IMG/VR virus record: IMGVR_UViG_3300048837_000676
Coordinates: 1 to 53,272 of that record
Length of the DNA stretch: 53,272 nt
Direction: 5' to 3' (one strand)
Source: a virus
Taxonomy: Duplodnaviria > Caudoviricetes
Below, in pieces: positions 6,102 to 44,233 of this stretch (within the stretch, counting starts at the first letter, position 1; each line of letters begins with the position of its first letter). The translations under genes and the position numbers were made by a program. The notes under the pieces are model-generated. The model had not been told where the DNA came from and did not search any database. It saw nothing but the letters and a program-made list of their open reading frames with translations.

Positions 6102-6130
6102 ATCGGCACCTCGAACAAGGGTGAGGAATT

Positions 6131-19479: not shown

Positions 19480-20928
19480 TTACACCATTCCGGCCCAGGA
19501 GGCAGACGGAACGGGAGGAGAAACTGCCGGAACGTGTGCATGCATCGTGTCCACCAGCATGACAAGGTATTGCAACGCATCGTGCGGATGGCTGAACTTG
19601 TTCTTGCTCGGGACATCCCGGTAACGCTCTTCTCCGGACACCTGCACACGCTCGAAGCGATAGCCGCCAAGGAACCCGCGCCGCAGCATTTTGCACGACG
19701 GGTCGAGCAGGAATGCGGGTTTGCCGTCAACCATGCGCGTGAGCCGGTCAATTACCGCCTGCCGTCGCGGCAGGAAGTCGTTCGTAGGCGCGGCCCGAGT
19801 CGGGATGCCGAGCATCTCCAGTTGCCCGAGGCATGTAAGCTCGTCTGCCTGGCTCGCCTGATTGCCCGCCGGATCGCCTCCGGAAACCAACGGCACATTC
19901 GGAAAAAGCGCCGCAAGGGTGGGCTTGACAACATCCGTCGCGAACTGTTTGACGCCGCCACGCTGACATACCATTTCGCGAAGAATGCGCAGTTGACCGT
20001 CTGGAGCGAGTTGCCCGACGATGCAGGAAGGAGTGAGCCCGAAGTCCCAGCCAAGAAAAATCGGCCGGCCTCGAAATAGTCCGAGTGGCGTCGGCGACAC
20101 ATGGACAGCATCGTTGTACACCCCGCCGAACACCGGCTTGCCGTCGAACACCGTGCCGTAGCGTCCGCAGCAGTGAACCGCTATCCATTCCGGGTCCGCT
20201 CCTTCCGTCAGCCGCAGCCAATACTGATAGCCCAATGGCTGGTTCTGCACATTTTCCGCACCGGGATTGGCCTCGTAGCCAATGATCTTGCCATTGTCGT
20301 TCAGAACTTGCACCAGTGCGCCTGGCTGCTTGAAGAACTGCCACCCATCCGGTTTCACATCCTCCGCCAGGCGGTACCACCAGTGATCGTCGTCGGGCGG
20401 ATTGGTGTCCATGATGAGACCGGTCCAAGTGATTTCATCGCAGTCGCGTTTCGACGGATACCTGCCCGTCCGCGACAGCGCCGCCTGCGCAATGGTCTTG
20501 TCAATCTCCCTCGCTTCGTTGATCCACGCCCCGGTAAGCTCCAGCGATAGCAGCTTTTTCACGTCTCTTGGCTTGTCAAGGGCGAGAAAGTACACCTGCA
20601 TGTCCATCCTGGTGCCGTCGGGAAGCGGCGTAGCCATGCGCCCGTCGATTGGTGCACCGTAGGTGATCGGGCAAACCTGCTCCGGTACCCACTCCTTCCA
20701 TGTGTTGATCGTGGTAGATTTGAGTTCGGGATAGGTTTGACGAATCACGGCCCAGCGAGTCCGCCGGACCCCGTATTTGTCCGGTGCCTGCCGCATCGCC
20801 CGTGACAGAATCTCCACGCAGCATGCAACCGATTTGCCGGACCCAATCGGCCCCATCACCCCGCGAACCGAGGCTTCCGACTGATGGAACCTCGCCAACG
20901 TTGGTTCCGCCTTGTAGGTGATGTTCAC
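19480..20928 (-). CDS. terL: Terminase large subunit
   Basis: Walker A GPIGSGKS, Walker B-like AWINEA, coupling motif DTNPP, RNase H-like nuclease GWDFG...HPHDALQY; GTG start overlapping the upstream stop. Confidence 0.92.
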   Translation of the reverse strand: MNITYKAEPTLARFHQSEASVRGVMGPIGSGKSVACCVEILSRAMRQAPDKYGVRRTRWAVIRQTYPELKSTTINTWKEWVPEQVCPITYGAPIDGRMATPLPDGTRMDMQVYFLALDKPRDVKKLLSLELTGAWINEAREIDKTIAQAALSRTGRYPSKRDCDEITWTGLIMDTNPPDDDHWWYRLAEDVKPDGWQFFKQPGALVQVLNDNGKIIGYEANPGAENVQNQPLGYQYWLRLTEGADPEWIAVHCCGRYGTVFDGKPVFGGVYNDAVHVSPTPLGLFRGRPIFLGWDFGLTPSCIVGQLAPDGQLRILREMVCQRGGVKQFATDVVKPTLAALFPNVPLVSGGDPAGNQASQADELTCLGQLEMLGIPTRAAPTNDFLPRRQAVIDRLTRMVDGKPAFLLDPSCKMLRRGFLGGYRFERVQVSGEERYRDVPSKNKFSHPHDALQYLVMLVDTMHAHVPAVSPPVPSASWAGMV

Positions 20929-21341
20929 GCCGTCGTCCTGTGAGTCCAGTGCCTCGACGAGCCAACCGCAAGCGCCAGCCAGGCCGCGCCGAGCCAAAGC
21001 ATGGTGAGCGTCCAGCGGATGGCCTTGCCGGACACCAGCCCATGCCAGAATCCGCAACCGAAGCGCATTTTGGCCACCCGGTAGGTGTTTGCGAGGAACC
21101 GGCGATTCGCGGCGCGGCGGGCCTTTGCGTCTCCGCCAACATGGAAATCGATGTCATGAGGGCGGCTGGCCGGCTTGAGGAACGGCAGTAGATCGAACAG
21201 CCAGCGAATAAAGCGGGGCCACGACTCCGGCCCCACGCCGTTGAGGATATTCGACCGTTCGGCTGGAGTGAACTCATGCCAATGCGGGCCAGCGTCCAGC
21301 CAGTACCCGTCGATGTAAGTCAGCTTCGGCTTAGTCTTCAC
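20925..21341 (-). CDS. Phospholipase A2-like phage protein with C-terminal hydrophobic helix
   Basis: NGVGP...A...HDIDF..GG....R..AN..F resembles the prokaryotic/phage PLA2 HD motif. Confidence 0.5.
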   Translation of the reverse strand: MKTKPKLTYIDGYWLDAGPHWHEFTPAERSNILNGVGPESWPRFIRWLFDLLPFLKPASRPHDIDFHVGGDAKARRAANRRFLANTYRVAKMRFGCGFWHGLVSGKAIRWTLTMLWLGAAWLALAVGSSRHWTHRTTA

Positions 21342-21756
21342 TGCGGCATCCCTCCAGCAAGGCCAACACCTGGTCGATGGTCGCGCCCTTGGCCTGCGCG
21401 AAGGCGGAGATGCCAGACATGAACTCGTCATCATCCGACGCCAGCACGTTCGCGTTGTCCCAATCGAAGCGGAGATCGTTGGCGTCCAGAAAGGCCAGGA
21501 AGTCCGCCAGCCAGCCCTGCGCACGGAGCATCCGCCCTACCTTGAGCTTGCTGTACTGGACCACGGGAGGAGGGAACCACGGCGCCATCTCTTCCGCCGT
21601 CGCCTCGCGGACCTGCCCGCTGTCCAGCACGGGACAGGACAGCGATCCCACATCCAACCACGCCCGCAAGTCGGCGCAGACATGGACGCCCTCGCCGGGC
21701 TGGTAGTCGTAGCCGGGGGCGGTCAAGCGTCCGTCGATAATGCGGAATCCGTACAT
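21331..21756 (-). CDS. Putative tail fibre assembly chaperone
   Basis: Follows the lectin-domain fibre; YSKLK...L...G....F..FL......W..A..L..DD..F pattern. Confidence 0.45.
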   Translation of the reverse strand: MYGFRIIDGRLTAPGYDYQPGEGVHVCADLRAWLDVGSLSCPVLDSGQVREATAEEMAPWFPPPVVQYSKLKVGRMLRAQGWLADFLAFLDANDLRFDWDNANVLASDDDEFMSGISAFAQAKGATIDQVLALLEGCRSED

Positions 21757-21758
21757 GG

Positions 21759-22505
21759 CTATACTCCAAACCGGTGGCGGGTTGACTCGTAGAGATAGCG
21801 CCGGGCACCAGCGGCTGTAGTTCCTGCTACAACGCAAGCGTCGTCTATGCTGCCCTGGAAAAAGCCGGAAAGATTGCCGTTGCCCGACTCCGCTCCAATG
21901 CCGGTGCGCAAGCCGTCGGCACCGCTTACAAACAACGACCCGGCGGTGAAGTTTCCGGTTACTTCCGTTGCGTTCACGCGGGCGACGTAGGTTCCTCCCG
22001 CAGCGTTTACCGACGCCAGCACAAAGGCCCATGCGTCTTGCGGAATGGTCAAACCCGTAGACAGCTCGCGAAAACCACTGCTATTGGTCACAATGACGCG
22101 AACAATCAAGTTTGCGCCATCTGCAACCAACGCGCCGCCGCCCCGATTTGTGCCTCCCCCAGAAGTAAAATCGCGGTCCCAACACAGTATGCCAGCGCCG
22201 GTTACGCTGGCCGCGCGGCGCACCCACGCGAACATTGTCACGCCGGGCAACCCGTGCAAACCCATTACTCCGCCTACGCCCGTAATGTAGCGAGGCGATC
22301 CGACCCATGACGTCGTGCCGGGAAAAACGGCTCCTGCTGGTGCGACGCTGGCCCCGCCGCCCGCCGCGTAGGACAATCCGGACTGCCACGGCGAGCAATC
22401 GAGCCAGCTTCCGCCCGCAGGAACGCGAGGATGGTAGAGAGTAGACAGGCATAGCCGCACGTCGCGGGGGTTGGCTACGTCGAAAACTGGGTGCAGGCTA
22501 GGCAA
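21759..22505 (-). CDS. LamG / concanavalin A-like lectin domain protein (receptor binding)
   Basis: T.FAWVR...W.FV.........VN.......IG.......FFQGSIDD..V LamG signature; codon usage differs from neighbours; TTG start after GGAGG. Confidence 0.7.
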   Translation of the reverse strand: MPSLHPVFDVANPRDVRLCLSTLYHPRVPAGGSWLDCSPWQSGLSYAAGGGASVAPAGAVFPGTTSWVGSPRYITGVGGVMGLHGLPGVTMFAWVRRAASVTGAGILCWDRDFTSGGGTNRGGGALVADGANLIVRVIVTNSSGFRELSTGLTIPQDAWAFVLASVNAAGGTYVARVNATEVTGNFTAGSLFVSGADGLRTGIGAESGNGNLSGFFQGSIDDACVVAGTTAAGARRYLYESTRHRFGV

Positions 22506-23406
22506 GGGCCACCTCCCCGCCGTGCAGGACGGCGCTGGTGGCATAGGTGCCGGGGTCGAGTGCCGAACGGTACACCTCCACCCGGCAGTGGTCTCCGGCG
22601 GCGAGGATGCCGGATAGCGTAATGGTCGCGCTGTCGGCTTGCGGGTCTCCGTTGTCTTCGTCGAGGGTGCTGGTGAGCGTAGTTTCGGCGACTACCCACG
22701 CGGGCGCGGTGCCGTCGCTCCACTTGTAGATGCGGATTTTCCAGAGGACTGTTTTCGACCCCGCATTGCCGCCCGCCCAATCGGATTTGCCGACTAACAC
22801 CCGAACGACTAGCGAAACCGCCCCGGATGCAATGCGCAAGTCATCGACGGCCAGGAAGGCATACGCGCCGGATTCGGCAGCGGCACGGACCACGCGGCAC
22901 GCTAGCGCATAGTTGGGTGCCAACGGGACGGCGGCGGCGACGGCCAAGGTTTCTCCCGTCCACGCGCCAGCGCCAGCGTAGTTGCCCGCCAACGTCGCGA
23001 GGGTGAAATAGTCGGTTCCGGCGGTGCCGAGGACAGCGGACACATACCACGCTGTACTGCCGTTGTACCACAGATAGAGCGTGCCGTCCTGCGAGATGTA
23101 AGCGGCTTGGCTGTTGTACTCGCCTATGCAACGCCAGACGCAGTTTGCGCTGGTGTCGGTGGTCGCTCCCGTCGAAAGCAGCGCGTCGATCCCCTGGTAG
23201 GAAAATTCGCGGGTCGGGAAGCCGGAGCCAAACGGCCCTACCACAGTGCCAGCAGGCAAACGGGCGTACAACCCATCCGCCTTGGCATACATTTCGAGGA
23301 TGCCAGAACCGGGAGCCGTGGGGTCCGTGGACAGCATGGCCAGACTGACGGGAGCATCGCCAAGCTGTGCAACGCTCCCGCTTGACAGTATGAGCGGTCT
23401 TGGCAT
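22498..23406 (-). CDS. Putative tail fibre / virion structural protein
   Basis: N-terminal P.AP.SG...MYAKADGLY.R fibre motif; Gly/Thr/Tyr-rich. Confidence 0.55.
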   Translation of the reverse strand: MPRPLILSSGSVAQLGDAPVSLAMLSTDPTAPGSGILEMYAKADGLYARLPAGTVVGPFGSGFPTREFSYQGIDALLSTGATTDTSANCVWRCIGEYNSQAAYISQDGTLYLWYNGSTAWYVSAVLGTAGTDYFTLATLAGNYAGAGAWTGETLAVAAAVPLAPNYALACRVVRAAAESGAYAFLAVDDLRIASGAVSLVVRVLVGKSDWAGGNAGSKTVLWKIRIYKWSDGTAPAWVVAETTLTSTLDEDNGDPQADSATITLSGILAAGDHCRVEVYRSALDPGTYATSAVLHGGEVALA

Positions 23407-23430
23407 ATCGCAGTATCCTTGCCGAACCGA

Positions 23431-23943
23431 CTACGCGAGGATGATCGGGTCCGACGGATTGAAGTTGATGGCGGTTGCGCTGGACGAGACGCCGAGTCGT
23501 TGCACGATGTTGCCGGTTGCGCTCGGGGCGGTCTCGGTTGTCGCACCGGGAGTCGTCGCGAGATACTGGACGGTGCCGACAGTCATGCCGGTGCGGTGGC
23601 TGTTGGTCGTCCCGATGGGGTAGATGGTCGCATTTGCCGCACTTTCGACCGCAGCCAGAACAAACCCGTGGGCTGGCTTGTTGGTGGTCGCGTCCGCCTT
23701 GCGGCATTTGACCGTCGTGTCGTCGTTGTAGAGGTTGACGAAATCCCCGTCGGCGATTGCCTCGGAAGCGGGAACGACGATTGTGTCGGCCCCAACTCCC
23801 GCGGGCATCATGCTGGACGCGAGCAGACCGGACGCATCGAGAGCCGGAATCTTCCCGGCATCGCTAGCTCCGGCGGAAGTCTGAATCGCCGCCACTTCCT
23901 GGAGGTTGCCGCCGCTGTGCGAAAGATACTTGTTTCCTGCCAT
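23431..23943 (-). CDS. Head fibre / capsid cement-like protein
   Basis: SAGASDAGKIPALDASG.L..SMMP.GVG and ASEAIA.GDFVN...KADA....AHGFV, a conserved phage structural family. Confidence 0.65.
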   Translation of the reverse strand: MAGNKYLSHSGGNLQEVAAIQTSAGASDAGKIPALDASGLLASSMMPAGVGADTIVVPASEAIADGDFVNLYNDDTTVKCRKADATTNKPAHGFVLAAVESAANATIYPIGTTNSHRTGMTVGTVQYLATTPGATTETAPSATGNIVQRLGVSSSATAINFNPSDPIILA

Positions 23944-23959
23944 TTTTGGAACTCCTGTG

Positions 23960-24766
23960 CTATGCGAGGGTGATCGTGCGTTGGATACGGATTGCGATTT
24001 TGGTTGCCGAGATTGCCTGTGCGACGGGCGCGGACACGCCAGAACTCGGAGCCGTCTCCGTCAGGACTCCGTTCACACCGGCGTAGAGGATGGCGTTCGG
24101 AGTCCAAGACCATGAAGAATCAATCATGATTCCCTCGGTCTGAATCGTGAGGTCCGCCCCGGTCACTGCTGCGCCGGCCGTAATTCCAAGCGGCGGGACG
24201 GTTGCGCTGGCGGAAAGGTAGTAGTTGCCTTGGTGATCGACTACGCGCCCTCCTCCGATCTCACCGGGCGACTCAACCGTGCATCTGGCAGGACCGGAGT
24301 TGTTGACGAGCGCATCCACTTCGGCATCGGTGTAGGTGTTCTCGTCGGGGTTGACCGGGGGCGTGTCTGCGGGCCTGTATGCCTGGTTGCCCAGCAGTGC
24401 CGCGCCTCCCGCCACGTCTACCCCCATCGGGCCATAGACCAGATCGTCAAGGCCCCATTGCAACGGGAGCCAGTCGGCGGAGCCGATCAGATTCCGCAGG
24501 GCGGGAATGGACAGGTCTAGCGCGACGGTCCCGGACCTCTCCCCCATCACGGCGACAGGCCAGTGTCCGACGGCATCCGCCCCAAGCTCGCCTACCCGCT
24601 TGGCCGTCAGCCGGTAGGTGTGCCCGTCCTCGAAAGTCCAATCCTCGTCGGCTGCAATGACGACCGCCACGGCAAACACGTTGCCTACGGACATCGGGCC
24701 TCCCGACCAAACCAGTGTCCGGGCGGAGGGCGTGACGGTGAGGGTTCTGGATTCGGGAGTTGCCAT
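23960..24766 (-). CDS. Virion structural protein with C-terminal cement-like domain
   Basis: C-terminal GIT..AA..G....I...G......W.W......Y.G.NG.LT..AP..G...VA.AI..T.I.I domain, related to the adjacent gene family. Confidence 0.55.
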   Translation of the reverse strand: MATPESRTLTVTPSARTLVWSGGPMSVGNVFAVAVVIAADEDWTFEDGHTYRLTAKRVGELGADAVGHWPVAVMGERSGTVALDLSIPALRNLIGSADWLPLQWGLDDLVYGPMGVDVAGGAALLGNQAYRPADTPPVNPDENTYTDAEVDALVNNSGPARCTVESPGEIGGGRVVDHQGNYYLSASATVPPLGITAGAAVTGADLTIQTEGIMIDSSWSWTPNAILYAGVNGVLTETAPSSGVSAPVAQAISATKIAIRIQRTITLA

Positions 24767-24774
24767 TGTCGTCC

Positions 24775-25014
24775 CTACTCGTCGAGAGCCGTGTAGGTGT
24801 AGGTGGCGTAGTCTGCGGCCACCAGCTTGCGCCCCGTCACGATCTTGCCGCCGACAACCGGGTAGGCATTGCTGCCAACCGAGTCGGTCTTGACGATGCT
24901 CCATGCGGCCTCGGCCAGGGGAGTGCCGATTGCCGCCTCGCAGGTGTACGTCCCGGCGGTATCTCCTTCGGCCACGACGTACACCTTTTTACGGACTGGT
25001 GCCAGTGTGCTCAT
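24775..25014 (-). CDS. Small virion-associated protein
   Basis: Y.CEAA.GT....A.W.I.K motif found in phage structural proteins. Confidence 0.5.
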   Translation of the reverse strand: MSTLAPVRKKVYVVAEGDTAGTYTCEAAIGTPLAEAAWSIVKTDSVGSNAYPVVGGKIVTGRKLVAADYATYTYTALDE

Positions 25015-25030
25015 TGTGCCATGCTCCGAA

Positions 25031-25098
25031 TAGCGGGGGATGGAGTCGAACCACCTCAGCCAGATCATGGGCCTGGCCAGGCTCCGAGCCGCCCCGCG
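25031..25098 (-). tRNA. Atypical tRNA(CAT)-like element, initiator-like, with reduced D-arm
   Basis: CGCGGGG/CCCCGCT-A acceptor stem with 1:72 mismatch; anticodon arm CCAGG-CCCATGA-TCTGG; T-arm GGTGG-TTCGACT-CCATC; D-arm reduced to GGCTCGGAGCC; 68 nt; no encoded CCA. Confidence 0.7.
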
Positions 25099-25103
25099 GT
25101 GGT

Positions 25104-25778
25104 CTAGTAGTCGCCGAGGTTGATCCAGTGGACAGTGACGGTGCCGCTCACCAGGGACTCGCCATTGCCGGTGGTCACATCGCCAGCGTCGATCATGACG
25201 TTGAGGTGCATGTCCTTGGCGGTGGTCGTGCCGTCGAACTGCGCCGAAGCGGCGAGTGCCCCCTTTGCCGTGCCGACGCCCGCGACCATCGGGTCTGTGA
25301 TCGCGGTGGTCGGGAGCAGGTCGGCCAGGGTGGAGGTGAGGGACGCAACGGCGTTGGCGGCGACGGTGCCGAGGGCGAGATCGCCACTGCCCGTGTCGCC
25401 CACGTTGGCCGACCCCGAGACATCAACCACGAGGTCCGCAACCACGCCGAGGACGAGGATACGCCCGGCGGGGAAGTCGAGCAGCTTGGCGGTGCCCCAG
25501 CCGGAGCTGTCTTCGGTTTTGCGGGTGATGGTGACGGCCAGCTCGTCGAGGGTGATGACGGTCTTGTTCGCGCCGCCGAAGGTGGTTGCAGCCGCGACAC
25601 CGGTGCCAGCCGCCTCGCCACTGGGGGCCAGCCCCGCCAGCATGTTGAGTTCGGCGGCGGAAGCCGTCAGCAGGGTGCCGGGAGTCCCGTTCTCGGGATC
25701 ACCCCCGAGATGCAGGGCCTTGATGTGCCCTTCGCGGATTTTGGTCTTGCCGAGGGAGATGTTTTCGCGGAATGCCAT
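25104..25778 (-). CDS. Virion structural protein (head/tail fibre-like)
   Basis: AGGAG RBS; TASAAELN.L.G repeat motif; beta-rich C-terminus (LLDFPAGRILVLG...FDGTTTAKD..LN...GTVTVHWINLGDY); high-expression codon bias. Confidence 0.6.
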   Translation of the reverse strand: MAFRENISLGKTKIREGHIKALHLGGDPENGTPGTLLTASAAELNMLAGLAPSGEAAGTGVAAATTFGGANKTVITLDELAVTITRKTEDSSGWGTAKLLDFPAGRILVLGVVADLVVDVSGSANVGDTGSGDLALGTVAANAVASLTSTLADLLPTTAITDPMVAGVGTAKGALAASAQFDGTTTAKDMHLNVMIDAGDVTTGNGESLVSGTVTVHWINLGDY

Positions 25779-25849
25779 CGTCGTACTCCTGTGCTCTGAG
25801 CCTATGTTTGCCCTGCCCGCCACCCGGCGGGTCGGAGCGGGAAACTGTC

Positions 25850-26320
25850 TTACGGATTCGTCGTCGAAGCGGCCTGCCGCGTTTGGTCGAGTGCGTCCAG
25901 CACGGTAGCCGCATCCTGCGCCTCGCGTTCGAGTCGCTCAAACACATCCCTGGGCTCCTGGGAAGGCTCCTGCCGGGCTTCTTCGCCTTCCCCCATACCT
26001 ACTGCCAGAACGGACTCGTCGCTGTCCTGGGGCGATTCTGCGGGTTTGATGGCAACGGCCTGTGGCCTGTCCATCGTCTGCGTCTGATTCGCGCCCTGCT
26101 GATAGGCGGCGTTCGCGGCTACAGCCGGGTTGAGGATATCGAGCCCGACCGGCTTTGCCGTCACGCCCACCTGGGCGTTGTTGACGATGATGACTGGGCC
26201 GTGTCCGCCTTCGCCCCTAAACTCCAGCGTGATGCGGGACTCGGGAGGGCTGGTCATGTTCTGCGTGGTGGAAGCGCAGCCGGCGACGAAAGCCAAGCAG
26301 ATCGCGAACAGGTTCTTCAT
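25850..26320 (-). CDS. Lipoprotein
   Basis: Signal peptide MKNLFAICLAF with lipobox VAG-C. Confidence 0.65.
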   Translation of the reverse strand: MKNLFAICLAFVAGCASTTQNMTSPPESRITLEFRGEGGHGPVIIVNNAQVGVTAKPVGLDILNPAVAANAAYQQGANQTQTMDRPQAVAIKPAESPQDSDESVLAVGMGEGEEARQEPSQEPRDVFERLEREAQDAATVLDALDQTRQAASTTNP

Positions 26321-26829
26321 TTCGCACCGTCCTTTTCGCCGTCCATGTGCAGGTTGAACACCACGCCGCCGAGGTCGTGCTTCTCTGGCTCGTTCCAGCC
26401 GTTCATTTTGGCGAGCACCTCAATAGCCCGGATCGGGTCGCGGAGCTTGACGCTGATCCGCTGCCCAGCCTCGGTATCCGCCAGTTGGACCGCCTCCAGG
26501 TCCGAGCGGGCCTTCGAGATCGCGGCCAAGTCGAACGTTCCGTCCGGTCGGAGATAGCGAGCCAACTCGCCCCTGGCCACCGATGCGAGGATGGCGATTG
26601 CCTCTTCGCGCTTGAGGCAGGCCCGGTCCGCCGCCCTGGCAGTCAACTCCTCGACGTAGGCGGCGACGTGCGGCAACTGGAACAGCTCCCACGCTCTCCT
26701 GCCGACGACGGTAGACTCCTTGGCTACGTTGTAGGCGCTTCGGTATGCGTCGGTCTTAGTCGCTCCGGCGACGAGGGCGTGAGCCGCCTTCGCCTGCTTC
26801 TCTGTCAGCTTTTTGTTTGTCCGGGGCAT
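26317..26829 (-). CDS. terS: Terminase small subunit
   Basis: KLTEKQ.......G.T.TDAYR.AY.......A..L...P.V.AY.EEL N-terminal HTH and KL.D...AIE.LAKM.GW C-terminus. Confidence 0.85.
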   Translation of the reverse strand: MPRTNKKLTEKQAKAAHALVAGATKTDAYRSAYNVAKESTVVGRRAWELFQLPHVAAYVEELTARAADRACLKREEAIAILASVARGELARYLRPDGTFDLAAISKARSDLEAVQLADTEAGQRISVKLRDPIRAIEVLAKMNGWNEPEKHDLGGVVFNLHMDGEKDGAK

Positions 26830-26924
26830 GACTTCACCGCCTAATGGCTGGGAGTGACTAACACACTGTAGCACACCTTGCAAACCTTGAAAAGTTTTTT
26901 CAAACGTCTGCGGGGGCGTGTGGC

Positions 26925-26963
26925 ACAAAAAAAAGAGTCACCGAAATGGTTTCGATGGCTCTT
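26925..26963 (-). terminator. Rho-independent terminator closing cassette 1
   Basis: On the minus strand AAGAGCCATCGAAA-CCA-TTTCGGTGACTCTT followed by a T-run. Confidence 0.75.
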
Positions 26964-26982
26964 GCTCATTTCTCGATCCGCC

Positions 26983-27180
26983 CTATCCGGCGGGTTTTTC
27001 ATGCCCCGTCAAGTACGCCGCCAGCGCCAGCAGCTCCCCGGCGCGGACGGTCGCCTGCCCGGCCAGCCGCTTTTCCACGCTGGATAGGGACAGACCGAGT
27101 GCGGCGGCGATTTCCGGCTGGGTCTTGCCGAGCTTCTTGGCGCGGCGGATGAGGCGTTGGAAGGTCACTGTGTCGTTCAC
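26983..27180 (-). CDS. Small HTH (XRE/Cro-like) regulator, Aca-like position, cassette 1
   Basis: KTQPEIAAALGLSLSSVEKRLAG HTH; paralogue of 29108-29296. Confidence 0.8.
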   Translation of the reverse strand: MNDTVTFQRLIRRAKKLGKTQPEIAAALGLSLSSVEKRLAGQATVRAGELLALAAYLTGHEKPAG

Positions 27181-27204
27181 TGGTCATTTCCTTTGGTCTG
27201 GGTG

Positions 27205-27321
27205 TCATTTCGATTCGCGGGGCAACTGGCGGCCCACGAAGGAGGTCGCAACGATAGCGGCGGGCCACGCCTCCGTGGATCGGATGGCGGCGTTACCTCT
27301 GTGTTCTGCGGCGGCTCCCAT
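27205..27321 (-). CDS. 38-aa internally deleted paralogue of 29339-29662 (possible pseudogene)
   Basis: AAGGAG RBS; MGAAAEHRGNAAIRSTEAWPAAIVATSFVGRQLPRESK shares both ends with the 107-aa protein. Confidence 0.6.
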   Translation of the reverse strand: MGAAAEHRGNAAIRSTEAWPAAIVATSFVGRQLPRESK

Positions 27322-27330
27322 GTCCTGTCT

Positions 27331-27361
27331 CCTTGGGCCGGGTGGCGGTCCCCGGCCCGGT
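27331..27361 (-). repeat. Intergenic hairpin repeat, copy 1 (loop GACCGCCA)
   Basis: GGGCCGGG-GACCGCCA-CCCGGCCC followed by AAGGAG. Confidence 0.7.
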
Positions 27362-27369
27362 GGGGGTGG

Positions 27370-27669
27370 CTAGCGGGCGAGGATTTCGTCCAGCCGTTCG
27401 CGGGCGCTGCCTTTGGTGCTCTGCGCGATGTACTCGATGCGCTGGATGTCCGACGGGTCGTCGGCAAGGCCCATCAGCACGGCGGCGCGGGTGGCGACGG
27501 AAGCGGCGCGCCATTCGCGAGCGTGCCAGTAATCGGAGAGGTTACCTTCGCGCCACACGTCAGCGGCAGGGTCGTACTGGACTACCTGGTACTGCCCGTT
27601 AAACGGGCGAATCAAGACTTCGGTTGCGGCCTGCTTGAGTGCGGCGGTTTTGGCGGTCTTGGTGGTCAT
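27370..27669 (-). CDS. Hypothetical protein, cassette 1 (anti-defence candidate)
   Basis: AAGGAG RBS, 99 aa, no recognisable motif. Confidence 0.7.
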   Translation of the reverse strand: MTTKTAKTAALKQAATEVLIRPFNGQYQVVQYDPAADVWREGNLSDYWHAREWRAASVATRAAVLMGLADDPSDIQRIEYIAQSTKGSARERLDEILAR

Positions 27670-27696
27670 TGTTCGGCTCCTTGGTTGGGGGGAATC

Positions 27697-28170
27697 CTAT
27701 ACCAGGCAAAAAAAGCCGCCGGTGGTCGTCTCTGATTCCACTGTCACGGCTAGCCGCCGGTGACGGCACTCTCCGCTGTCTTCCGCTTCCACCATCCGCC
27801 AGCGGTCGGCAATCACCGGCGGAAGCGCTTCGATTTCCCGCGCCGTGAGCAGACGGACGGACAGGTCGTCCGCTTCCTCCATGTCGGCCCCTGTTTGTCC
27901 GTGCAACACCACGGCGGGTATGCTCTCGATCACTCCGTCCGCTTGCAACGCTTCCAGGGCTTCGCGCCGGGTCGTGTGCTTTGTCGGGTTGTCGGCAGTC
28001 CCGTTGCACTGCCGGTGGGTAACTACCCAGCGGGGCCGAGACGTGCTGCTATCTGTCTCGCGCGTCACGTAGCTTTCTACCGGCCAATCGGTCCCCATTA
28101 TTTTCTGCCATCCGATGAGCAGGGTGTCCACTTTTTTACGCTGTGCTGTGTTTTTTGTCGCGTTCATCAT
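27697..28170 (-). CDS. Hypothetical protein, first gene of cassette 1 (anti-defence candidate)
   Basis: Starts just after the leader hairpin and an AAGG RBS; 157 aa. Confidence 0.65.
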   Translation of the reverse strand: MMNATKNTAQRKKVDTLLIGWQKIMGTDWPVESYVTRETDSSTSRPRWVVTHRQCNGTADNPTKHTTRREALEALQADGVIESIPAVVLHGQTGADMEEADDLSVRLLTAREIEALPPVIADRWRMVEAEDSGECRHRRLAVTVESETTTGGFFCLV

Positions 28171-28185
28171 CTTTGCCCTTGTTCT

Positions 28186-28267
28186 GTCGGCGGGAACCTT
28201 TCCCGTCAACACCACTAATATGCCATAGATTTTACGGTATGCAAGCTAAAAGCCGTAAAAAGTACGG
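28186..28267 (-). promoter_or_regulatory. Cassette 1 promoter, paired operators and leader hairpin
   Basis: TTGCAT(28244-28239)-16 bp-CATATT; palindromes CCATA-N5-TACGG (28223-28237) and CCGTA-N5-TACGG (28253-28267); hairpin TGTTGACGGGAA-AGG-TTCCCGCCGACA. Confidence 0.7.
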
Positions 28268-28271
28268 TTTT

Positions 28272-28664
28272 TTATCCAAGTTCCTCGACCTGCAAAAAAA
28301 TACCGGGGGTGTCCGACCAGAACTTTTCGACCACCGAGCTGACCACCTGGGCGTCGTCCAACCAGTATCCGGCGTCGGTCATGCAGTCGTGCAGCAGCTT
28401 GGTCAGGTTGTCCACGTCGGGCTTGGTCTCTTTCCATTCCCCGTGCCGATGCTTGCCGGTCGCCGGGAATAGCCACTTCGCCACGCACCGCACAGGTCCT
28501 GTCGCCGGGGCTTCGGGTCTGTGCCGCCCTAGGTGCGCCATCAGCTTCGCCCTGGCATCCTTGAGGGCCGGGGGCTCGAAGAATACCGGCTTGCCTTTGG
28601 CTACGCGCACCTGCTTCTCCTGGTGCGTGGTCGTCGGCGGTTCCATCGCGAGGAAGACTTGCAT
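28272..28664 (-). CDS. rusA: RusA family Holliday junction resolvase
   Basis: PPT.THQ.K N-terminus and catalytic KPDVDNL.K.L.D.M....W.DD.QV motif. Confidence 0.9.
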   Translation of the reverse strand: MQVFLAMEPPTTTHQEKQVRVAKGKPVFFEPPALKDARAKLMAHLGRHRPEAPATGPVRCVAKWLFPATGKHRHGEWKETKPDVDNLTKLLHDCMTDAGYWLDDAQVVSSVVEKFWSDTPGIFLQVEELG

Positions 28665-28916
28665 CAGACATTTCTCCCGTCGAACCGGTCTTCGGTCCGG
28701 TTGTAGCCGACATGGACGGACACACCGTCCAGCCGTCCAGCCGGGTGAACCACTTTGCGATACACGGTCCATGTCATATTCTTCCGTCGCTCCCTGTTTT
28801 GAGAAATGCCGGGATGTCCTTGGCCTTGCGGGTCAGGGGTGGCCGCTATAAGAGGCCGGGGTAGGTTTCGGCGAGCTTGTGAGCCGGAACCCCCCCTTAT
28901 CCGCAAGGACTTGACC

Positions 28917-29117
28917 GAAGGGAAAAAGATACTATCTCGTAAGAGATAGTAGTTTTCCTTCCCTCGGGAAAAAGCTAGTACGGTTTTCCCTTCCCTCTGT
29001 TTCGCGAGGGAAAAAGCTAGTATTTTCTTCCCTTTCCCTTGGGAAATTGGGAAAAAGCTAGTGTTTTCCCTTCCCTGGCTAGTGATATGGAAAAATTGGG
29101 AAAACACCTATTTTCCC
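28917..29117. repeat. Iteron-like array, probable replication origin
   Basis: GGGAAAAAGCTAGT at 28966, 29008 and 29049 (42 and 41 bp spacing), each followed by TTTTC(C/T)..CCC; perfect hairpin TACTATCTC-GTAA-GAGATAGTA at 28930-28951; AT-rich. Confidence 0.7.
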
Positions 29118-29296
29118 TCCCGTTCGAGGATAGCGGCGAGGGCGATGATCTCCCCCTCGCGGACGGGTGCGTCGCCTGACAGCCGCTTCTGGACGCTGGA
29201 CTTCGAGAGGCCCAGGCGGTCGGCAATGGCCTGCTGATTCAGGCCCTGCCGCTTCGCGATCCGGCAGAGACGGGTAAACTCTCTAATGGTGTTCAT
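29108..29296 (-). CDS. Small HTH (XRE/Cro-like) regulator, Aca-like position, cassette 2
   Basis: LNQQAIADRLGLSKSSVQKRLSG HTH; paralogue of 26983-27180. Confidence 0.8.
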   Translation of the reverse strand: MNTIREFTRLCRIAKRQGLNQQAIADRLGLSKSSVQKRLSGDAPVREGEIIALAAILEREGK

Positions 29297-29311
29297 GTGC
29301 GTGTCTCGTGG

Positions 29312-29337
29312 TTGGGTCGGGTGGCAGTCCCCGGCTC
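29312..29337 (-). repeat. Intergenic hairpin repeat, copy 2 (loop GACTGCCA)
   Basis: GAGCCGGG-GACTGCCA-CCCGACCC. Confidence 0.65.
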
Positions 29338-29338
29338 G

Positions 29339-29662
29339 TTATGCGTGTGACGCTTCTCGGGGAAGTTGGCGACCGACATAGGTCGTGGCAATGACTGCGG
29401 CAGACCACGCCTCGGAAAAAAACCGATCACCCCACTTCGAGAGCAGGGCGTAACGACGGAACGAATCAGGCACGGCACACTGGTAGGGACCGAGCGTAAC
29501 GATCCCACCGCGCGGGTGCTTCCAGGACAGAACAGTCCCCTCGGAAATTACTTGCGCCCAAAGCCGTGTGCGCTCGTCTAGGGTATTGGCGCGGGCTTTT
29601 GCTTCATCGGCGAGCATGTTAATCAAAACGGCACTAGTGCGAGAGTATGCAGCGTGCCCCAT
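29339..29662 (-). CDS. Hypothetical protein, cassette 2 (anti-defence candidate)
   Basis: AAGGA RBS; 107 aa ending EAWSAAVIATTYVGRQLPRE. Confidence 0.7.
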   Translation of the reverse strand: MGHAAYSRTSAVLINMLADEAKARANTLDERTRLWAQVISEGTVLSWKHPRGGIVTLGPYQCAVPDSFRRYALLSKWGDRFFSEAWSAAVIATTYVGRQLPREASHA

Positions 29663-29683
29663 GTTTGTTATCCTTGGCTGGCT

Positions 29684-29707
29684 GGCCGGTGGCTGTCCCG
29701 GCCCGGT
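29684..29707 (-). repeat. Intergenic hairpin repeat, copy 3 (loop GACAGCCA)
   Basis: GGCCGG-GACAGCCA-CCGGCC. Confidence 0.65.
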
Positions 29708-29715
29708 CTAGATGA

Positions 29716-29931
29716 CTAACGGTCGGACTTGGCGACGACTTGCAGCCCATGCACTTTGACGGTCCATCCGTTGCACCGGCTGGACTGGTATCCGCCACGG
29801 TTGGGTTCCTGCATCAATGCCCCCATGAGGGCGGTATCGATGTCGCTCAGGTCGCTGCCAGTGGCATCGATTACTTCAGCGGCGTGGAACTCGCGGCCTT
29901 CGGGGATTTGAAACTTGACGGTCTTTTTCAT
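29716..29931 (-). CDS. Hypothetical protein, first gene of cassette 2 (anti-defence candidate)
   Basis: TAAGGA RBS after the leader hairpin; 71 aa starting MKKTVKFQIPEG. Confidence 0.65.
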   Translation of the reverse strand: MKKTVKFQIPEGREFHAAEVIDATGSDLSDIDTALMGALMQEPNRGGYQSSRCNGWTVKVHGLQVVAKSDR

Positions 29932-29945
29932 CGTCGTTTTCCTTA

Positions 29946-30031
29946 GTTGTCGGCGGGAACCATTCCCGCCTACAACCAACAAAATAGCGTAAATATTATG
30001 CAATGCAAGCGAGAAAGCGGAATATTTACGT
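29946..30031 (-). promoter_or_regulatory. Cassette 2 promoter, paired operators and leader hairpin
   Basis: TTGCAT(30008-30003)-16 bp-TATTTT; palindromes GCGTA-N5-TATGC (29987-30001) and GCGGA-N5-TACGT (30017-30031); hairpin GTTGTAGGCGGGAA-TGG-TTCCCGCCGACAAC. Confidence 0.7.
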
Positions 30032-30071
30032 TTTTTTTTCCCGCCATTTTGGCACCCTACTCGGGGCGTGC

Positions 30072-30287
30072 TTACATGCCTTCCGTGTGTCCGCTGCGGA
30101 CATTCCTCCACCCCTTTCCTGGAATCCCATCCCCCATCTTCCTCTCGTACGCCTCCCGTTCATCCCACGCATTGTGAATGCAGACCGGCTCCCAACAGCC
30201 TGCATCCATCTCCACCACCGGATTACACGGGCACTCCGGAGTCGCGTCGTGGGGCTTGGCGTCGTTGGCCGGGATTACATGTATCAT
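30072..30287 (-). CDS. Small His/Cys-containing phage protein
   Basis: HVIP.ND..PH....C.C.P........IHNAWD.RE motif; coupled to the upstream gene. Confidence 0.6.
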   Translation of the reverse strand: MIHVIPANDAKPHDATPECPCNPVVEMDAGCWEPVCIHNAWDEREAYERKMGDGIPGKGWRNVRSGHTEGM

Positions 30288-30577
30288 CAGCGGCTCCAGT
30301 CGATCAGGCCAAGCGCATCGAGAGCACTGCGCAGGGCGGCGGCGTTGTAGATGGTGACTTTCCGGTCAGAGTCGCACGACACCCACGCGGAAAGCTCCCG
30401 CAGTCCGCGCCCGAAGGCAATGGCGCACCCGGGAGGGCCACCATTCGACGATGGGCGGTGTGATGCATCGTCCGGAAACACCAGACGAATCAGCGTGTGG
30501 TAGGAGATGCCGCTCCTGTAGTGCCTCAGAATTCGGCGCGCGGTCTTGGATGGCGGACGGTAGTCGGACTCGGGCAT
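30287..30577 (-). CDS. Hypothetical protein
   Basis: GAGG RBS; ..SSNGGPPGC..AF.R.L motif. Confidence 0.55.
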   Translation of the reverse strand: MPESDYRPPSKTARRILRHYRSGISYHTLIRLVFPDDASHRPSSNGGPPGCAIAFGRGLRELSAWVSCDSDRKVTIYNAAALRSALDALGLIDWSR

Positions 30578-30581
30578 TGGT

Positions 30582-30827
30582 TCATTCCTCTCTGCTGGTG
30601 GACTCGAACAGCGGCAACCCCGCGACGGACTTGTCCACCGGGCGCACGTCTGCCATCTGCCGGTTGACCTCGCTGCACCAAATCCGGTACGGGTGATAGG
30701 CCCGCTCGCCCCACGGGTAGGCGTCCCGCAGCGCCCGCCGGATTTCCTTCTCCGGTTCGCCCTTGTGTTCGGCAATCACCCGGTAGATGATTGGCTTTGC
30801 TTTGTCTCGCCATGTCATGTGTCTCAT
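30582..30827 (-). CDS. Conserved phage hypothetical protein
   Basis: TWR..A..II..V..........R.AL.DAYP.GER..HPY.IW..EV motif. Confidence 0.6.
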   Translation of the reverse strand: MRHMTWRDKAKPIIYRVIAEHKGEPEKEIRRALRDAYPWGERAYHPYRIWCSEVNRQMADVRPVDKSVAGLPLFESTSREE

Positions 30828-31072
30828 TCGGTTTCCCTCCCGGTGATGGACGCCACGGTCAGCTCGTGGGCCTTGGCCTGGCAATCGTGGCACATGGCGT
30901 TTTCGGGGGCCGTGGCGTAGTAGGGGTTGGCGTAGGGATCGAAGGCGGGCTCGCGGTAGTGCCAGCGCTGGCCGCAGAGGGTCAGCCCGCCGCGCCGGGC
31001 CTCGCCGTCGCAGAGGTGGACGGGGCCGCCCGGCTCGATCCGGACCTCGAAGAATCGGCGGTAGCGGTTCAT
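30824..31072 (-). CDS. Small Zn-binding hypothetical protein
   Basis: H...TLCG...C..C motif; ATGA coupling. Confidence 0.55.
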   Translation of the reverse strand: MNRYRRFFEVRIEPGGPVHLCDGEARRGGLTLCGQRWHYREPAFDPYANPYYATAPENAMCHDCQAKAHELTVASITGRETE

Positions 31073-31319: not shown

Positions 31320-32234
31320 TCATTCGTCTCCCTTCCGCGCCGGGGCGGCGTCGTCTTCGTTATCGTCCGCAAAAAGGAACTCGCCTTGGCATTGCAAACC
31401 ATCGTCGCGCCTCGCCCCGGAGAGCCACCATTCCCACATTGCATCCCCGCTGGCGAATGCGGCGGAGTACCGAGGCTTGCCGTCATTGCGCGGGACATCG
31501 TGCCACCGTTCCCAGAAGCGCACAATAGCCCGCTTCCACAGCGCCCGGTATCGCGGCCAGCGGTCAAACTCTCTGGCAACGCTATTTGGCCCTCCCATCG
31601 GGCATCCGACACATCCAAGCCGAGCAAATCCCTGGTCGTAAAGCTCGCAATATGGCAGCATCCGCTGGCGGATGAACTGCCAAACGTCTTCGTCCGTCCA
31701 GTAGCAGATCGGGCAGACAATGCCGCCGCCCCTTCGGTTAGGCACGTAGGTCCGCCACAGCTTGGCGCGGCGCGAGCTCTCGGCAACCCGAATCCCGATC
31801 AGCTTCATCCAGCCCCTGCCGCCGCCCTCTTTGAATTCCTCGCAGCACCACCGCGCGAGCCTCGTTGGTGGCCCGTTGCTTCGCCGCGCCAGGCGAGCAA
31901 AGAAGCTAATGGGTTGCCTAACCCACTCCACATCCGGATGCTCGCGCTTGATGAAGCGCACAAGCTCCGGCGGGTCAATCGTGGTGACGCTGTAGGCGGC
32001 GTGGTATTTCACGCCCGCCATCTTGGCAAGCTCCAGCATCACACACGAATCCTTGCCGCCGGAAAACGCCAGCCAAAACCCGGCAGGATTCAGCGACAGC
32101 GCCATCGGCTCGTAGGCTCGGAGCGTGTCTATGGCCGTCTGGATTTTGGCCTCCAGCGGCAACGCCATAGCCTCGGCTACCATGTCGGCTTCGGTCTTTT
32201 CGTATCCCGGCAAAAGCATCTGGCTGGCCATCAC
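31320..32234 (-). CDS. Phosphoadenosine phosphosulfate (PAPS) reductase family protein
   Basis: PP-loop AFSGGKDS, TT.DPPEL, RWCC..FKE, GIR.AES..R, PI..WT..DVW and LYD.GF.RLGCVGCP. Confidence 0.9.
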   Translation of the reverse strand: MMASQMLLPGYEKTEADMVAEAMALPLEAKIQTAIDTLRAYEPMALSLNPAGFWLAFSGGKDSCVMLELAKMAGVKYHAAYSVTTIDPPELVRFIKREHPDVEWVRQPISFFARLARRSNGPPTRLARWCCEEFKEGGGRGWMKLIGIRVAESSRRAKLWRTYVPNRRGGGIVCPICYWTDEDVWQFIRQRMLPYCELYDQGFARLGCVGCPMGGPNSVAREFDRWPRYRALWKRAIVRFWERWHDVPRNDGKPRYSAAFASGDAMWEWWLSGARRDDGLQCQGEFLFADDNEDDAAPARKGDE

Positions 32235-43569: not shown

Positions 43570-43746
43570 CTACCGAAGTTCAGATGCGTACTTTTGGGGG
43601 AGGTACTCAAGCAGAGCCTTCTCCACGATTCGGCGGCGAGGGATGTCCGTCGCTTTGTTCACCCTGTCGATCAAGGCCCGAACTTCGGGGCCGACTTCGA
43701 CTATCCGGCTTTCCGCTTGGCTCTTGTAGGTTTTTCGCTTCGTCAT
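43570..43746 (-). CDS. Ribbon-helix-helix (Arc/Cro-position) DNA-binding protein
   Basis: AGGAG RBS; VEVGPEVRALIDRV......RRRIVEKALLEYL; divergent from the CI-like gene. Confidence 0.65.
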   Translation of the reverse strand: MTKRKTYKSQAESRIVEVGPEVRALIDRVNKATDIPRRRIVEKALLEYLPQKYASELR

Positions 43747-43784
43747 GGTGGTCTCCTGTTGCTGGTGTGATTTGTGCCTACGCT

Positions 43785-43870
43785 GAGAAAGTAACACAGA
43801 AGTTTTCCGAAGCAAACCAAAGAACACAATATTTTTCTTTGGTTTACTTTTGATCTTGGTGTATGGTGGT
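43785..43870. promoter_or_regulatory. Divergent promoter / operator region of the lysis-lysogeny switch
   Basis: AT-rich; inverted repeat AAACCAAAGAA-N10-TTCTTTGGTTT (43814-43845); leftward TTGCTT-16-TACTTT and rightward TTGGTT-17-TATGGT candidates. Confidence 0.55.
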
Positions 43871-43891
43871 GTTGCATCGGGAGTTACAGCC

Positions 43892-44233
43892 ATGAAAAAA
43901 CCTACTCCGGAAATCCGCAGAGCAATCGATTTGTGCATGGTGGATCGCGGGTTGACCGCTCGCGAGCTTGCCTCAATGGTTGGCGTCGCAGAGAGCTCCA
44001 TGTCAAGTTGGCGGTCGGGGAAGCAGAACATAGCGAATCCCCACTGGGCCAAACTCCGAGAGATTCTCGCTCCCTATCTGGATTCGCCCACGCCGGGGAG
44101 TTCCCCTAGCGCCGTGTCTCCCGGCGACGTGTCCGGATTCTCGACCGTTCCCGTGATCTGGATTGCCCGCGCCGCCGACTACGAAGCCTGCCTTCAGTCG
44201 GTCACGATAACAACCACATCGCCGTCAGGCTAG
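43892..44233 (+). CDS. CI-like XRE repressor, apparently truncated before the S24 peptidase domain
   Basis: RGLTARELASMVGVAESSMSSWRSG HTH, a linker, then VPVI..A.AA.Y (start of an S24-type domain) and an early stop overlapping the stop of the giant gene. Confidence 0.75.
   Translation: MKKPTPEIRRAIDLCMVDRGLTARELASMVGVAESSMSSWRSGKQNIANPHWAKLREILAPYLDSPTPGSSPSAVSPGDVSGFSTVPVIWIARAADYEACLQSVTITTTSPSG

Follow-up and report, generated by a model that had tools for sequence, protein, structure and literature searches.

Two cassettes of small genes were identified on the minus strand of IMGVR_UViG_3300048837_000676, an IMG/VR virus record of 53,272 bp (linear by classification, CheckV completeness 100), which was analysed in its entirety and is referred to as the window. 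As judged from sequence, the cassettes are real and probably represent self-regulated accessory operons, with an architecture like that of operons which combine anti-CRISPR (acr) genes with a gene for an anti-CRISPR-associated (aca) regulator. Between a common 5' control block and a common 3' block, the latter including the gene of a small helix-turn-helix (HTH) protein, each cassette carries its own set of small cargo genes. Tentatively, we favour the explanation that the cassettes are self-contained accessory operons derived from an ancient duplication, each repressed by its own HTH protein and by that of its sibling, with a cargo of early host-takeover or counter-defence proteins. An anti-defence role of the cargo is plausible but unproven.

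The initial annotation had described two cassettes of one layout (28267 to 26925 and 30031 to 29108), and all of their elements were recovered on the minus strand, to which all seven cassette open reading frames (ORFs) and, unless stated otherwise, all features given below belong. The gene order is g1a, g1b, g1c, and HTH1 in cassette 1 (157, 99, 38, and 65 amino acids (aa); intergenic gaps of 27, 48, and 24 nt) and g2a, g2b, and HTH2 in cassette 2 (71, 107, and 62 aa; gaps of 53 and 42 nt). A blastn comparison of the two cassettes yielded three colinear homologous blocks with non-homologous cargo in between. These are the 5' control block (28277-28163 and 30041-29927, 72% over 116 nt, E 5e-16), a GC-rich intercistronic element (27368-27319 and 29347-29294, 76% over 54 nt), and a 3' block (27273-26996 and 29413-29111, 62% over 306 columns, E 7e-17) that spans the HTH gene and the end of the gene before it (g1c or g2b). 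In case of cassette 1, the intercistronic element forms a GC hairpin of the type GGGCCGGG-N8-CCCGGCCC (27319-27368, -24.6 kcal/mol) and includes the Shine-Dalgarno (SD) sequence and the start of g1c, and in case of cassette 2 its paralogous counterpart (29294-29347) precedes HTH2. Together with a third, related copy at 29725-29697, three copies of this SD-containing hairpin element are thus situated between genes. Since the proportion of synonymous differences (pS) is approximately 0.6 in both protein-coding parts of the 3' block, and the ratio of nonsynonymous to synonymous substitution rates (dN/dS) approximately 0.36 for the HTH genes and 0.15 for the motif described below, the sequences indicate an old duplication of which both copies have been maintained.

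HTH1 (26983-27180, 65 aa, GTG start) and HTH2 (29108-29296, 62 aa) are bare XRE-type domains. Both pass the Pfam HTH_3 cut-off of 23 bits, with 23.6 and 30.5 bits, respectively, and are thus members of the XRE/HTH_3 superfamily; HTH2 furthermore matches HTH_31 with 30.4 bits. The best PHROG of both proteins is phrog_4583 (E 1.8e-6 for HTH1 and 1.7e-8 for HTH2), which is annotated as transcriptional repressor. That the two are clear paralogues, as the initial annotation had it, is borne out by 33 identical residues out of 57 (58%, E 1e-18), and the presumed recognition helices, as read from the alignment, are nearly identical (SLSSVEKRL and SKSSVQKRL). With a proportion of nonsynonymous differences (pN) of 0.33 compared to a pS of 0.60, the pair is under purifying selection.

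Searches for relatives of the HTH proteins returned generic matches. In NCBIfam and PADLOC these were exclusively far under the cut-offs (DicA, RstR, HipB-type, and PDC-M64/M69), and sequence searches against PDB chains gave the lambda and 434 repressors, P1 ParB, HigA3, and C.BclI with weak E-values; no chain named Aca was among the matches, neither with the HTH profile (E up to 1) nor with HTH2 alone (E up to 10). The HTH profile found the two window proteins only in a word-indexed search of 5.8 billion proteins, a type of search by which distant relatives are missed, and it had no match in the GTDB genomes. In IMG/VR, 100 of 175 stretches matching HTH2 were confirmed by tblastn and 80 were kept, with a coverage of residues 7 to 62, approximately, around the HTH core only. 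Of these 80, 15 were inspected. They are membrane-anchored or longer proteins with GLTQQAIADRLG in common, and their assignment to the same family was rejected. The single tblastn match of HTH2 in phages, a 215-aa membrane-linked bacterial XRE protein encoded among housekeeping genes, is likewise not a usable relative.

A second conserved element lies directly upstream of the HTH genes. The 38-aa ORF g1c (27205-27321), which the initial annotation had not listed, carries the C-terminal motif EAWPAAIVATSFVGRQLPRE, and its last 22 residues align to the C-terminal 22 aa of g2b (EAWSAAVIATTYVGRQLPRE; ORF at 29339-29662) with 15/22 identical and 21/22 positive positions (BLASTP, E 5e-11), the shared motif being EAWxAAxxATxxVGRQLPRE. 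With pN 0.17, pS 0.61, and a dN/dS of approximately 0.15, estimated from the small sample of 22 codons, this motif is apparently under purifying selection. The gene g1c and the motif that it shares with g2b are a new part of the cassette anatomy. Due to this shared motif, the conserved core of the cassettes is best described as a motif protein plus an HTH protein, and the genes ahead of them as the variable part.

The same conservation would also be expected if the motif protein were the functional partner of the HTH protein, i.e., a toxin, an anti-repressor, or a co-repressor that is neutralised or sensed by it, with the other genes as passengers and exclusion or defence as a possible function. 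Within the cargo, conservation between the cassettes is indeed confined to a segment of the gene directly upstream of the HTH gene, the pN of this segment is well below its pS, and models of XRE antitoxins (Y4mF/HipB-type, HigA3, and PADLOC PDC-M64/M69) are matched weakly, below threshold, by the HTH proteins. However, these antitoxin matches reach 17-20 bits compared to curated cut-offs of 71-90, neither g2b nor g1c could be assigned to a toxin or defence family in Pfam, PHROG, NCBIfam, and PADLOC (the family libraries searched throughout), g1c with its 38 aa is devoid of most of g2b, and the HTH proteins of 62-65 aa are DNA-binding domains with no additional neutralising domain. We consider a toxin-antitoxin-like (TA-like) module of this kind quite improbable.

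Upstream of the cargo, the 5' control blocks (28163-28277 in cassette 1 and 29927-30041 in cassette 2; alignment A1) are conserved, and in cassette 2 an A-tract, a promoter-like motif, a leader palindrome, and an SD sequence were delineated within this block. The promoter-like motif reads GCTTGCAT-N16-CATATT in cassette 1 (28246-28217, part of a feature with palindromes at 28217-28267) and GCTTGCAT-N16-TATTTT in cassette 2 (29981-30010). In a pattern scan of the genome, perfect matches to GCTTGCAT-N16-YATWTT were restricted to the two cassettes. Allowing for up to two mismatches, four matches occur in the window compared to 0.45 expected, a number reached by none of 100 shuffles, and the other two matches have two mismatches each. 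Of the aligned sigma70-like promoters that had been proposed, the common motif is therefore perfect at both cassettes, but its hexamers resemble the sigma-70 consensus weakly (TTGCAT 3/6, CATATT and TATTTT 4/6), and a generic promoter scan returned no site in 26000-31000.

Inverted repeats are embedded in both promoter regions. The 15-bp palindrome CCGTA-N5-TACGG has two genome matches at up to one mismatch, both in the promoter of cassette 1, one of them upstream of the -35 hexamer (28267-28253) and the other in the spacer between the -35 and -10 hexamers (28237-28223). In cassette 2, the spacer contains the imperfect palindrome GCATA-N5-TACGC (30001-29987) as a degenerate counterpart, and a 17-nt inverted repeat flanks the -35 hexamer (30037-30021 and 29997-29981).

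The leader palindrome follows immediately, and the conserved leader hairpin of the initial annotation was found at both cassettes. Its core is CGGGAA-AGG-TTCCCG in cassette 1 (28185-28211; -15.3 kcal/mol, z-score (z) -2.0) and CGGGAA-TGG-TTCCCG in cassette 2 (29943-29979; -23.6 kcal/mol, z -4.96). In cassette 1 the palindrome begins 5 nt past the -10 hexamer and ends 14 nt ahead of the ATG, and in cassette 2 it begins 6 nt past the -10 hexamer, with the conserved core ending 16 nt ahead of the ATG. In both cassettes the palindrome adjoins the SD sequence. Perfect copies of the 14-mer GGTTCCCGCCGACA occur at 28198-28185 and 29961-29948 only, and both genome copies of CGGGAA-N3-TTCCCG are situated in the cassette leaders (at least two copies were obtained in 2 of 100 shuffles). 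The combined pattern of promoter and palindrome, present twice in this genome, has no other occurrence in IMG/VR. According to alignment A1, the 3' arm of the palindrome is identical between the cassettes and shows the highest conservation within the control region.

This mode of conservation bears on a simpler explanation, namely that the cassettes are constitutive morons with unregulated promoters, whose leader hairpin only stabilises the 5' end of the mRNA and whose HTH proteins regulate host genes or other phage targets. Each cassette does possess promoter-like and terminator-like signals of its own between conserved phage genes (sequence signals only), the hairpins are thermodynamically stable, and the GC content of the cassette 2 cargo (0.58, compared to approximately 0.63 for the genome) is as expected of acquired DNA. 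On the other hand, the palindrome has been kept as a sequence, with its identical 3' arm, and not as a structure, and cassette 1 alone has the promoter-embedded palindromes CCGTA-N5-TACGG. Unregulated morons are an improbable explanation.

The favoured explanation of self- and cross-repressed operons leads to the following model. Host RNA polymerase would fire both AT-rich sigma-70-type promoters early, after which the cargo and the HTH proteins would accumulate. Dimers of the HTH proteins may then bind to the palindrome CGGGAA-N3-TTCCCG at the predicted start site as the probable operator, and possibly to the promoter palindromes as well. A dimer bound to the palindrome DNA would block RNA polymerase, so that each regulator might shut down its own cassette and that of its sibling, while specificity may be increased by the promoter palindromes of the individual cassettes (CCGTA-N5-TACGG in cassette 1 and its degenerate form GCATA-N5-TACGC in cassette 2). 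As a hairpin at the 5' end of the RNA, next to the ribosome-binding site, the leader sequence could also be bound in the form demonstrated for Aca1 and Aca2. The position of the palindrome after the -10 hexamer and before the start codon resembles the geometry given for acr-aca1 in PMC13551039. Cargo would have been exchanged between the fixed 5' control block and the fixed 3' block, which consists of the 22-aa-motif protein and the HTH protein, and the small, soluble orphan proteins would most likely serve host takeover or counter-defence in an early burst of expression that has to be shut off afterwards.

The cargo proteins have a size of 38-157 aa and are preceded by SD sequences, and no hydrophobic segment of transmembrane strength was found in them (highest 19-residue Kyte-Doolittle mean 1.23). 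Judged by GC content per codon position, g1a, g1b, g2a, and both HTH genes have a clear coding signature (GC content at third codon positions (GC3) 0.71-0.83, with 0.74 for g2a), and that of g2b is weak (GC3 0.59). Two to three small orphan genes per cassette had been proposed. This holds for g1a (27697-28170, acidic, pI 5.4), g2a (29716-29931, with the SD sequence AAGGA), and g2b, but g1b has a family and cassette 1 contains g1c in addition. None of the cargo proteins was assigned to a family of Pfam, PHROG, NCBIfam, or PADLOC. The proteins g1a and g2b matched only themselves among 5.8 billion proteins, IMG/VR scans with g1a, g2a, and the alignment of the 22-aa motif gave no match, and by tblastn and IMG/VR scan no relatives of g2a were found in IMG/VR, GenBank phages, or PLSDB plasmids.

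In case of g1b (27370-27669), 1.84 billion representatives were searched exhaustively with HMMER, which resulted in 15 matches at E <= 1e-3 (P0005-P0019). The closest relative, P0005, is 83% identical. P0009 (813 aa with a low-complexity repeat) was regarded as spurious and removed from the family alignment, and the 13 further relatives of 87-112 aa and 29-46% identity have the N-terminal pattern SKTAAIKQA...GGQWQV..YD...AWRQG in common. The small, unnamed family thus comprises 14 credible members of 87-112 aa, which originate from metagenomes only. Ten matches that were looked up are encoded on short metagenome contigs, and in one cluster three proteins bear the name "hypothetical protein" only. 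The contigs of the family members have a length of 721-5205 bp, with 1844 bp in case of P0005 and 5205 bp in case of P0007. No match was obtained by tblastn of g1b, P0010, and P0011 against phages, and IMG/VR and JGI metagenome scans with the g1b-family queries P0005, A4, and A5 remained empty. The sole GTDB match of the family, located inside a 2025-aa YD-repeat protein of Niastella, is spurious. Weak single matches were obtained for two family members, to Pfam LPD15 (E 0.013) and DUF6566, respectively.

Structure prediction, which had been suggested for the cargo, was informative for g1b. An AlphaFold2 model based on the family alignment is confident (predicted local distance difference test (pLDDT) 94.4, predicted template modelling score 0.86) and has an alpha-beta3-alpha3 topology, for which Foldseek found no match in PDB and BFVD at E <= 1e-3. 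The single-sequence AlphaFold2 model of g2a was unusable (pLDDT 52), and the ESM Atlas gave no lead for g1a and g2b, with Atlas models of pLDDT 0.48 and 0.44, respectively.

The two cassettes end differently. Cassette 1 is closed by an intrinsic-terminator-like hairpin with a U8 tract (26926-26963), and of the strong terminator that the initial annotation had placed here the canonical stem and U-tract were found, but the folding energy is moderate (-14.8 kcal/mol, z -1.0). Directly after HTH2, an array of GGGAAAA...TTTTCCC hairpins takes the place of a single terminator in cassette 2. Four to five GGGAAGGGAAAAC...TAGCTTTTTCCC hairpin or iteron units (28920-29117; -84.4 kcal/mol, z -5.2) are arranged as direct repeats with a spacing of 41-46 bp, each unit being an inverted repeat of the form GGGAA(G)GGAAAAC...TAGCTTTTTCCC. 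All five genome matches of GGAAAA-N(1-30)-TTTTCC occur in this array (0.07 expected), and GGGAA/TTCCC is found there 14 times in 226 bp compared to 3.06 per kb, an approximately 20-fold enrichment. GGGAA/TTCCC arms are common to the array and the leader palindromes. The array could be a terminator stack, an origin or iterons, a pac site, a protein-binding array, or a sink for the HTH proteins. A partition locus with the array as centromere was rejected, as cassette 2 has no NTPase gene.

Downstream of the terminator-like hairpin of cassette 1, a perfect palindrome TTGAAAA-AAC-TTTTCAA (26887-26903; single genome match, 0.04 expected) is located upstream of terS. It overlaps a -35-like hexamer TTTTCA and lies 17 nt upstream of TGC-TACAGT, which resembles an extended -10 element, and approximately 30 nt before the terS start. 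The stretch 26855-26903 is a possible regulated late promoter or operator, a candidate proposed from sequence.

This arrangement can alternatively be read as a timing module, in which the paralogous HTH proteins would be middle or late regulators acting on the terS promoter and on each other's cassette, with the small genes being incidental. Paralogous regulators occur in phage Mu, where Mor and C are paralogous activators. The cassettes are flanked by RusA and the replication genes at one end and by terS at the other, the terminator-like hairpin separates HTH1 from terS, and the unique palindrome over the -35-like hexamer before terS has the arm-N3-arm geometry of the leaders. Furthermore, only four 80-bp windows of the genome have a GC content below 42%, and these are the two cassette promoters besides the hairpin array and a divergent region at approximately 43.8 kb. 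In contrast, the terS palindrome agrees with the leader half-site at three of six positions only, the best PHROG of the bare XRE domains is annotated as repressor, and the cassette promoters, because they are near-identical, look co-regulated rather than sequential. Such a timing function is unlikely, though less so than the two alternatives discussed above. A lambda Q-type antitermination unit was rejected, as no Q-like protein is present and the genes lie between promoter and terminator.

Several observations weigh against the favoured explanation of counter-defence operons under self- and cross-repression. The cargo matches no Acr, anti-defence, or defence family in the libraries searched, and guilt by association is inapplicable because the HTH proteins have no specific homologues in the searches made. 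The weak hexamers and the empty generic promoter scan mentioned above belong here as well. Since the 5' arm of the leader hairpin differs between the cassettes without compensatory change, RNA structure is unsupported by covariation (n = 2), and for the same reason the two copies cannot tell DNA from RNA as the selected form. Moreover, timing regulators are what would be expected between replication genes and terS, the putative terS promoter is overlapped by a separate palindrome, and one partly conserved cargo gene adjoins the HTH gene, as in toxin-first TA pairs. Circumstantial support for counter-defence comes from a PAPS-reductase gene 1.3 kb upstream of cassette 2 and from a polyvalent protein with LPD domains. 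It is tempting to go one step further and to speculate that an undescribed Aca-like XRE family with two paralogues steers sibling anti-defence operons through a start-site palindrome, acting as DNA and as RNA hairpin, with the 22-aa-motif micro-protein as a component, and that novel anti-defence proteins are among the cargo, including the g1b family, for whose predicted fold no match was found in PDB and BFVD. This extended version is doubtful.

With respect to the genomic context, nearly all genes of the record are oriented on the minus strand. Their order starts with a giant ORF over both record ends, followed by the divergent region at approximately 43.8 kb, genes for SbcC-like and Sak4-like proteins, a helicase, and a primase, the PAPS-reductase gene (31320-32234), small genes, cassette 2, the hairpin array, RusA, cassette 1, terS, approximately eight further genes, and finally TerL, portal, and internal virion protein. 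Between the cassettes, a RusA-like Holliday junction resolvase gene is located at 28272-28664 (Pfam RusA 91.9 bits; phrog_140, E 4e-35). No integrase was found among the 30 context proteins scanned. The primase is approximately 50-53% identical to primases of Bacillota phages, and a blastn search of the 3.5-kb region against GenBank phages had the RusA gene of a Flavonifractor phage as its sole match. Due to these two resemblances, a high-GC gut Bacillota host is possible. A single terS relative was found in IMG/VR (L083, 44% identity), which has opposite-strand genes upstream and lacks the cassette.

A number of further features were observed in the neighbourhood. The PAPS-reductase (DndC-like) gene has its match to phrog_424 at E 2e-42. 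Just upstream of cassette 2, 30072-30287 encodes a 71-aa acidic, Cys-rich protein of phrog_2864 (unknown function, E 6e-16); of the small proteins near the cassettes that were compared with PHROGs, it is the sole one with a phage family. Approximately 250 bp upstream of RusA (28665-28920) contain no credible ORF (the listed frame extension has a GC3 of 0.44) and no Rfam match, and include a long-range inverted repeat (28824-28842 and 28890-28908). Rfam gave no match in the window or the cassette region, and no tRNAs were found. In the stretch 19480-26829, approximately 5 kb with roughly eight genes separate terS from TerL, an unusual arrangement of packaging genes. Among these are a lipoprotein-like 156-aa ORF (25850-26320) and genes for proteins of phrog_11997 and phrog_4368.

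The divergent region at approximately 43.8 kb comprises a weak-HTH gene and a small ribbon-helix-helix-like gene. In detail, a control region (43746-43892) separates a plus-strand 113-aa weak-HTH_3 gene (43892-44233) from a minus-strand 58-aa gene (43746-43570), and it contains a perfect 11-bp inverted repeat AAACCAAAGAA-N10-TTCTTTGGTTT (43845-43814). This region looks like a cI/cro-type switch, although an integrase was not seen among the proteins scanned. At the record ends, two truncated giant ORFs (3-6296, 2098 aa, and 44230-53271, 3013 aa; both on the minus strand) would be in one frame if the record were circular or permuted, with the three leftover bases forming a non-stop codon and a total of approximately 5112 aa. 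No terminal repeat of 10-100 bp was found in the record. Pfam matches to InPase in the first part (3-6296) and to LPD1 and LPD3 (large polyvalent protein-associated domains) in the second suggest that the ORF encodes a giant polyvalent protein.

If the HTH proteins repress the cassette promoters, the acr-aca paradigm would gain a new family of regulators and a set of cargo genes that are all orphans, found in a lineage of phages of which hardly any relatives have been sequenced. The locus would then also be a natural two-copy system on the co-divergence of operator and regulator after duplication, and the four cargo proteins together with the 38-aa motif protein would be candidates for screening against defence panels. 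If the HTH proteins instead time late transcription, the locus would represent a compact regulatory hub of a podovirus-like phage, with a hairpin array, both promoters, and the palindrome of a late promoter concentrated in 3.2 kb.

Among known systems, classical lambdoid morons are not known to possess a dedicated regulator at their end or a control region in two copies. The cassettes resemble them as autonomous promoter-to-terminator-like units between conserved phage genes, here RusA and terS, with a cargo unrelated to the phage life-cycle modules, and differ from them by their terminal regulator and duplicated control region; in addition, an integrase was not seen among the proteins scanned. 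The C proteins of restriction-modification operons and Cro/CI-type XRE repressors are small HTH proteins that autoregulate via palindromic operators over their own promoter. The cassette HTH proteins are likewise small and of XRE type, with C.BclI and the 434 and lambda repressors as weak, sub-threshold matches (E 0.3-1.2). In contrast to C-protein operons, no restriction-modification genes are present and the HTH gene is the last and not the first of the cassette. HigBA and MqsRA are toxin-first type II TA pairs, for which autoregulation through palindromes is typical. Similar to these, a small gene is situated directly upstream of an XRE HTH gene and the pair is kept in both cassettes, but no toxin family match and no neutralising domain were detected in the libraries searched, one partner has a length of 38 aa only, and there is extra cargo upstream.

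The closest likeness is that to acr-aca operons. According to PMC13551039, acr-aca1 operons have a promoter DNA motif, with the transcription start site (TSS) approximately 10 nt downstream, and an inverted repeat of approximately 20 nt right after the TSS, which ends approximately 20 nt before the acr start codon. Aca1 binds this leader repeat as RNA, in the way in which Aca2 binds its own motif and thereby blocks the ribosome-binding site; RNA motifs between genes occur in acr-aca operons, too, and most Aca families appear to regulate neighbouring operons also (PMC13551039). The same source associates PAPS-reductase and polyvalent-protein genes with anti-defence regions. AcaFinder (PMC9765179) asks for genes on the same strand, gaps of <250 bp, proteins of <200 aa, an HTH protein of <150 aa, and, as its key requirement, at least one Acr homologue. 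Strand, spacing, and sizes of both cassettes are within these limits, and no Acr homologue was detected within Pfam, PHROG, NCBIfam, and PADLOC. The acr-aca-like architecture claimed at the outset was thus recovered with respect to the non-homology requirements of AcaFinder (PMC9765179), and the control region resembles those of acr-aca1 and acr-aca2 (PMC13551039).

In detail, the cassettes share with the Aca1 and Aca2 systems (PMC13551039; PMC6765145) a common strand for all genes and the succession of a promoter, small unrelated genes, and a small HTH gene at the end. Hairpin elements between genes and inverted repeats within the promoter are likewise common to both, as is the use of the same regulatory motif at two neighbouring operons (PMC13551039). 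The inverted repeat just downstream of the predicted TSS in the 5' untranslated region, a trait of Aca1 and Aca2, is present along with the promoter inverted-repeat motif, and here it ends 14-16 nt before the first start codon. Differences are given by the cargo, which has no homologue of a known Acr in the libraries searched, by the HTH proteins, which have no detectable specific relatives and matched no chain named Aca (described families Aca1-Aca14) in PDB searches, by the paralogous regulator that each cassette possesses in place of one Aca for several operons, and by the conserved motif protein that precedes the HTH protein. Due to the missing Acr homologue in these libraries and the lack of a matching Aca chain, the locus is not called a member of the acr-aca family; by analogy it would work like an acr-aca operon, with binding and repression by the HTH proteins being presumed. 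HTH-capped, palindrome-controlled operons of small genes, as well as one regulator family over several operons, are already known (PMC13551039). Particular to this phage are a cargo that is completely orphan, with a g1b family that has no structural match in the libraries searched, two diverged regulator paralogues that share one start-site palindrome, and a micro-protein motif that is conserved beside the HTH protein.

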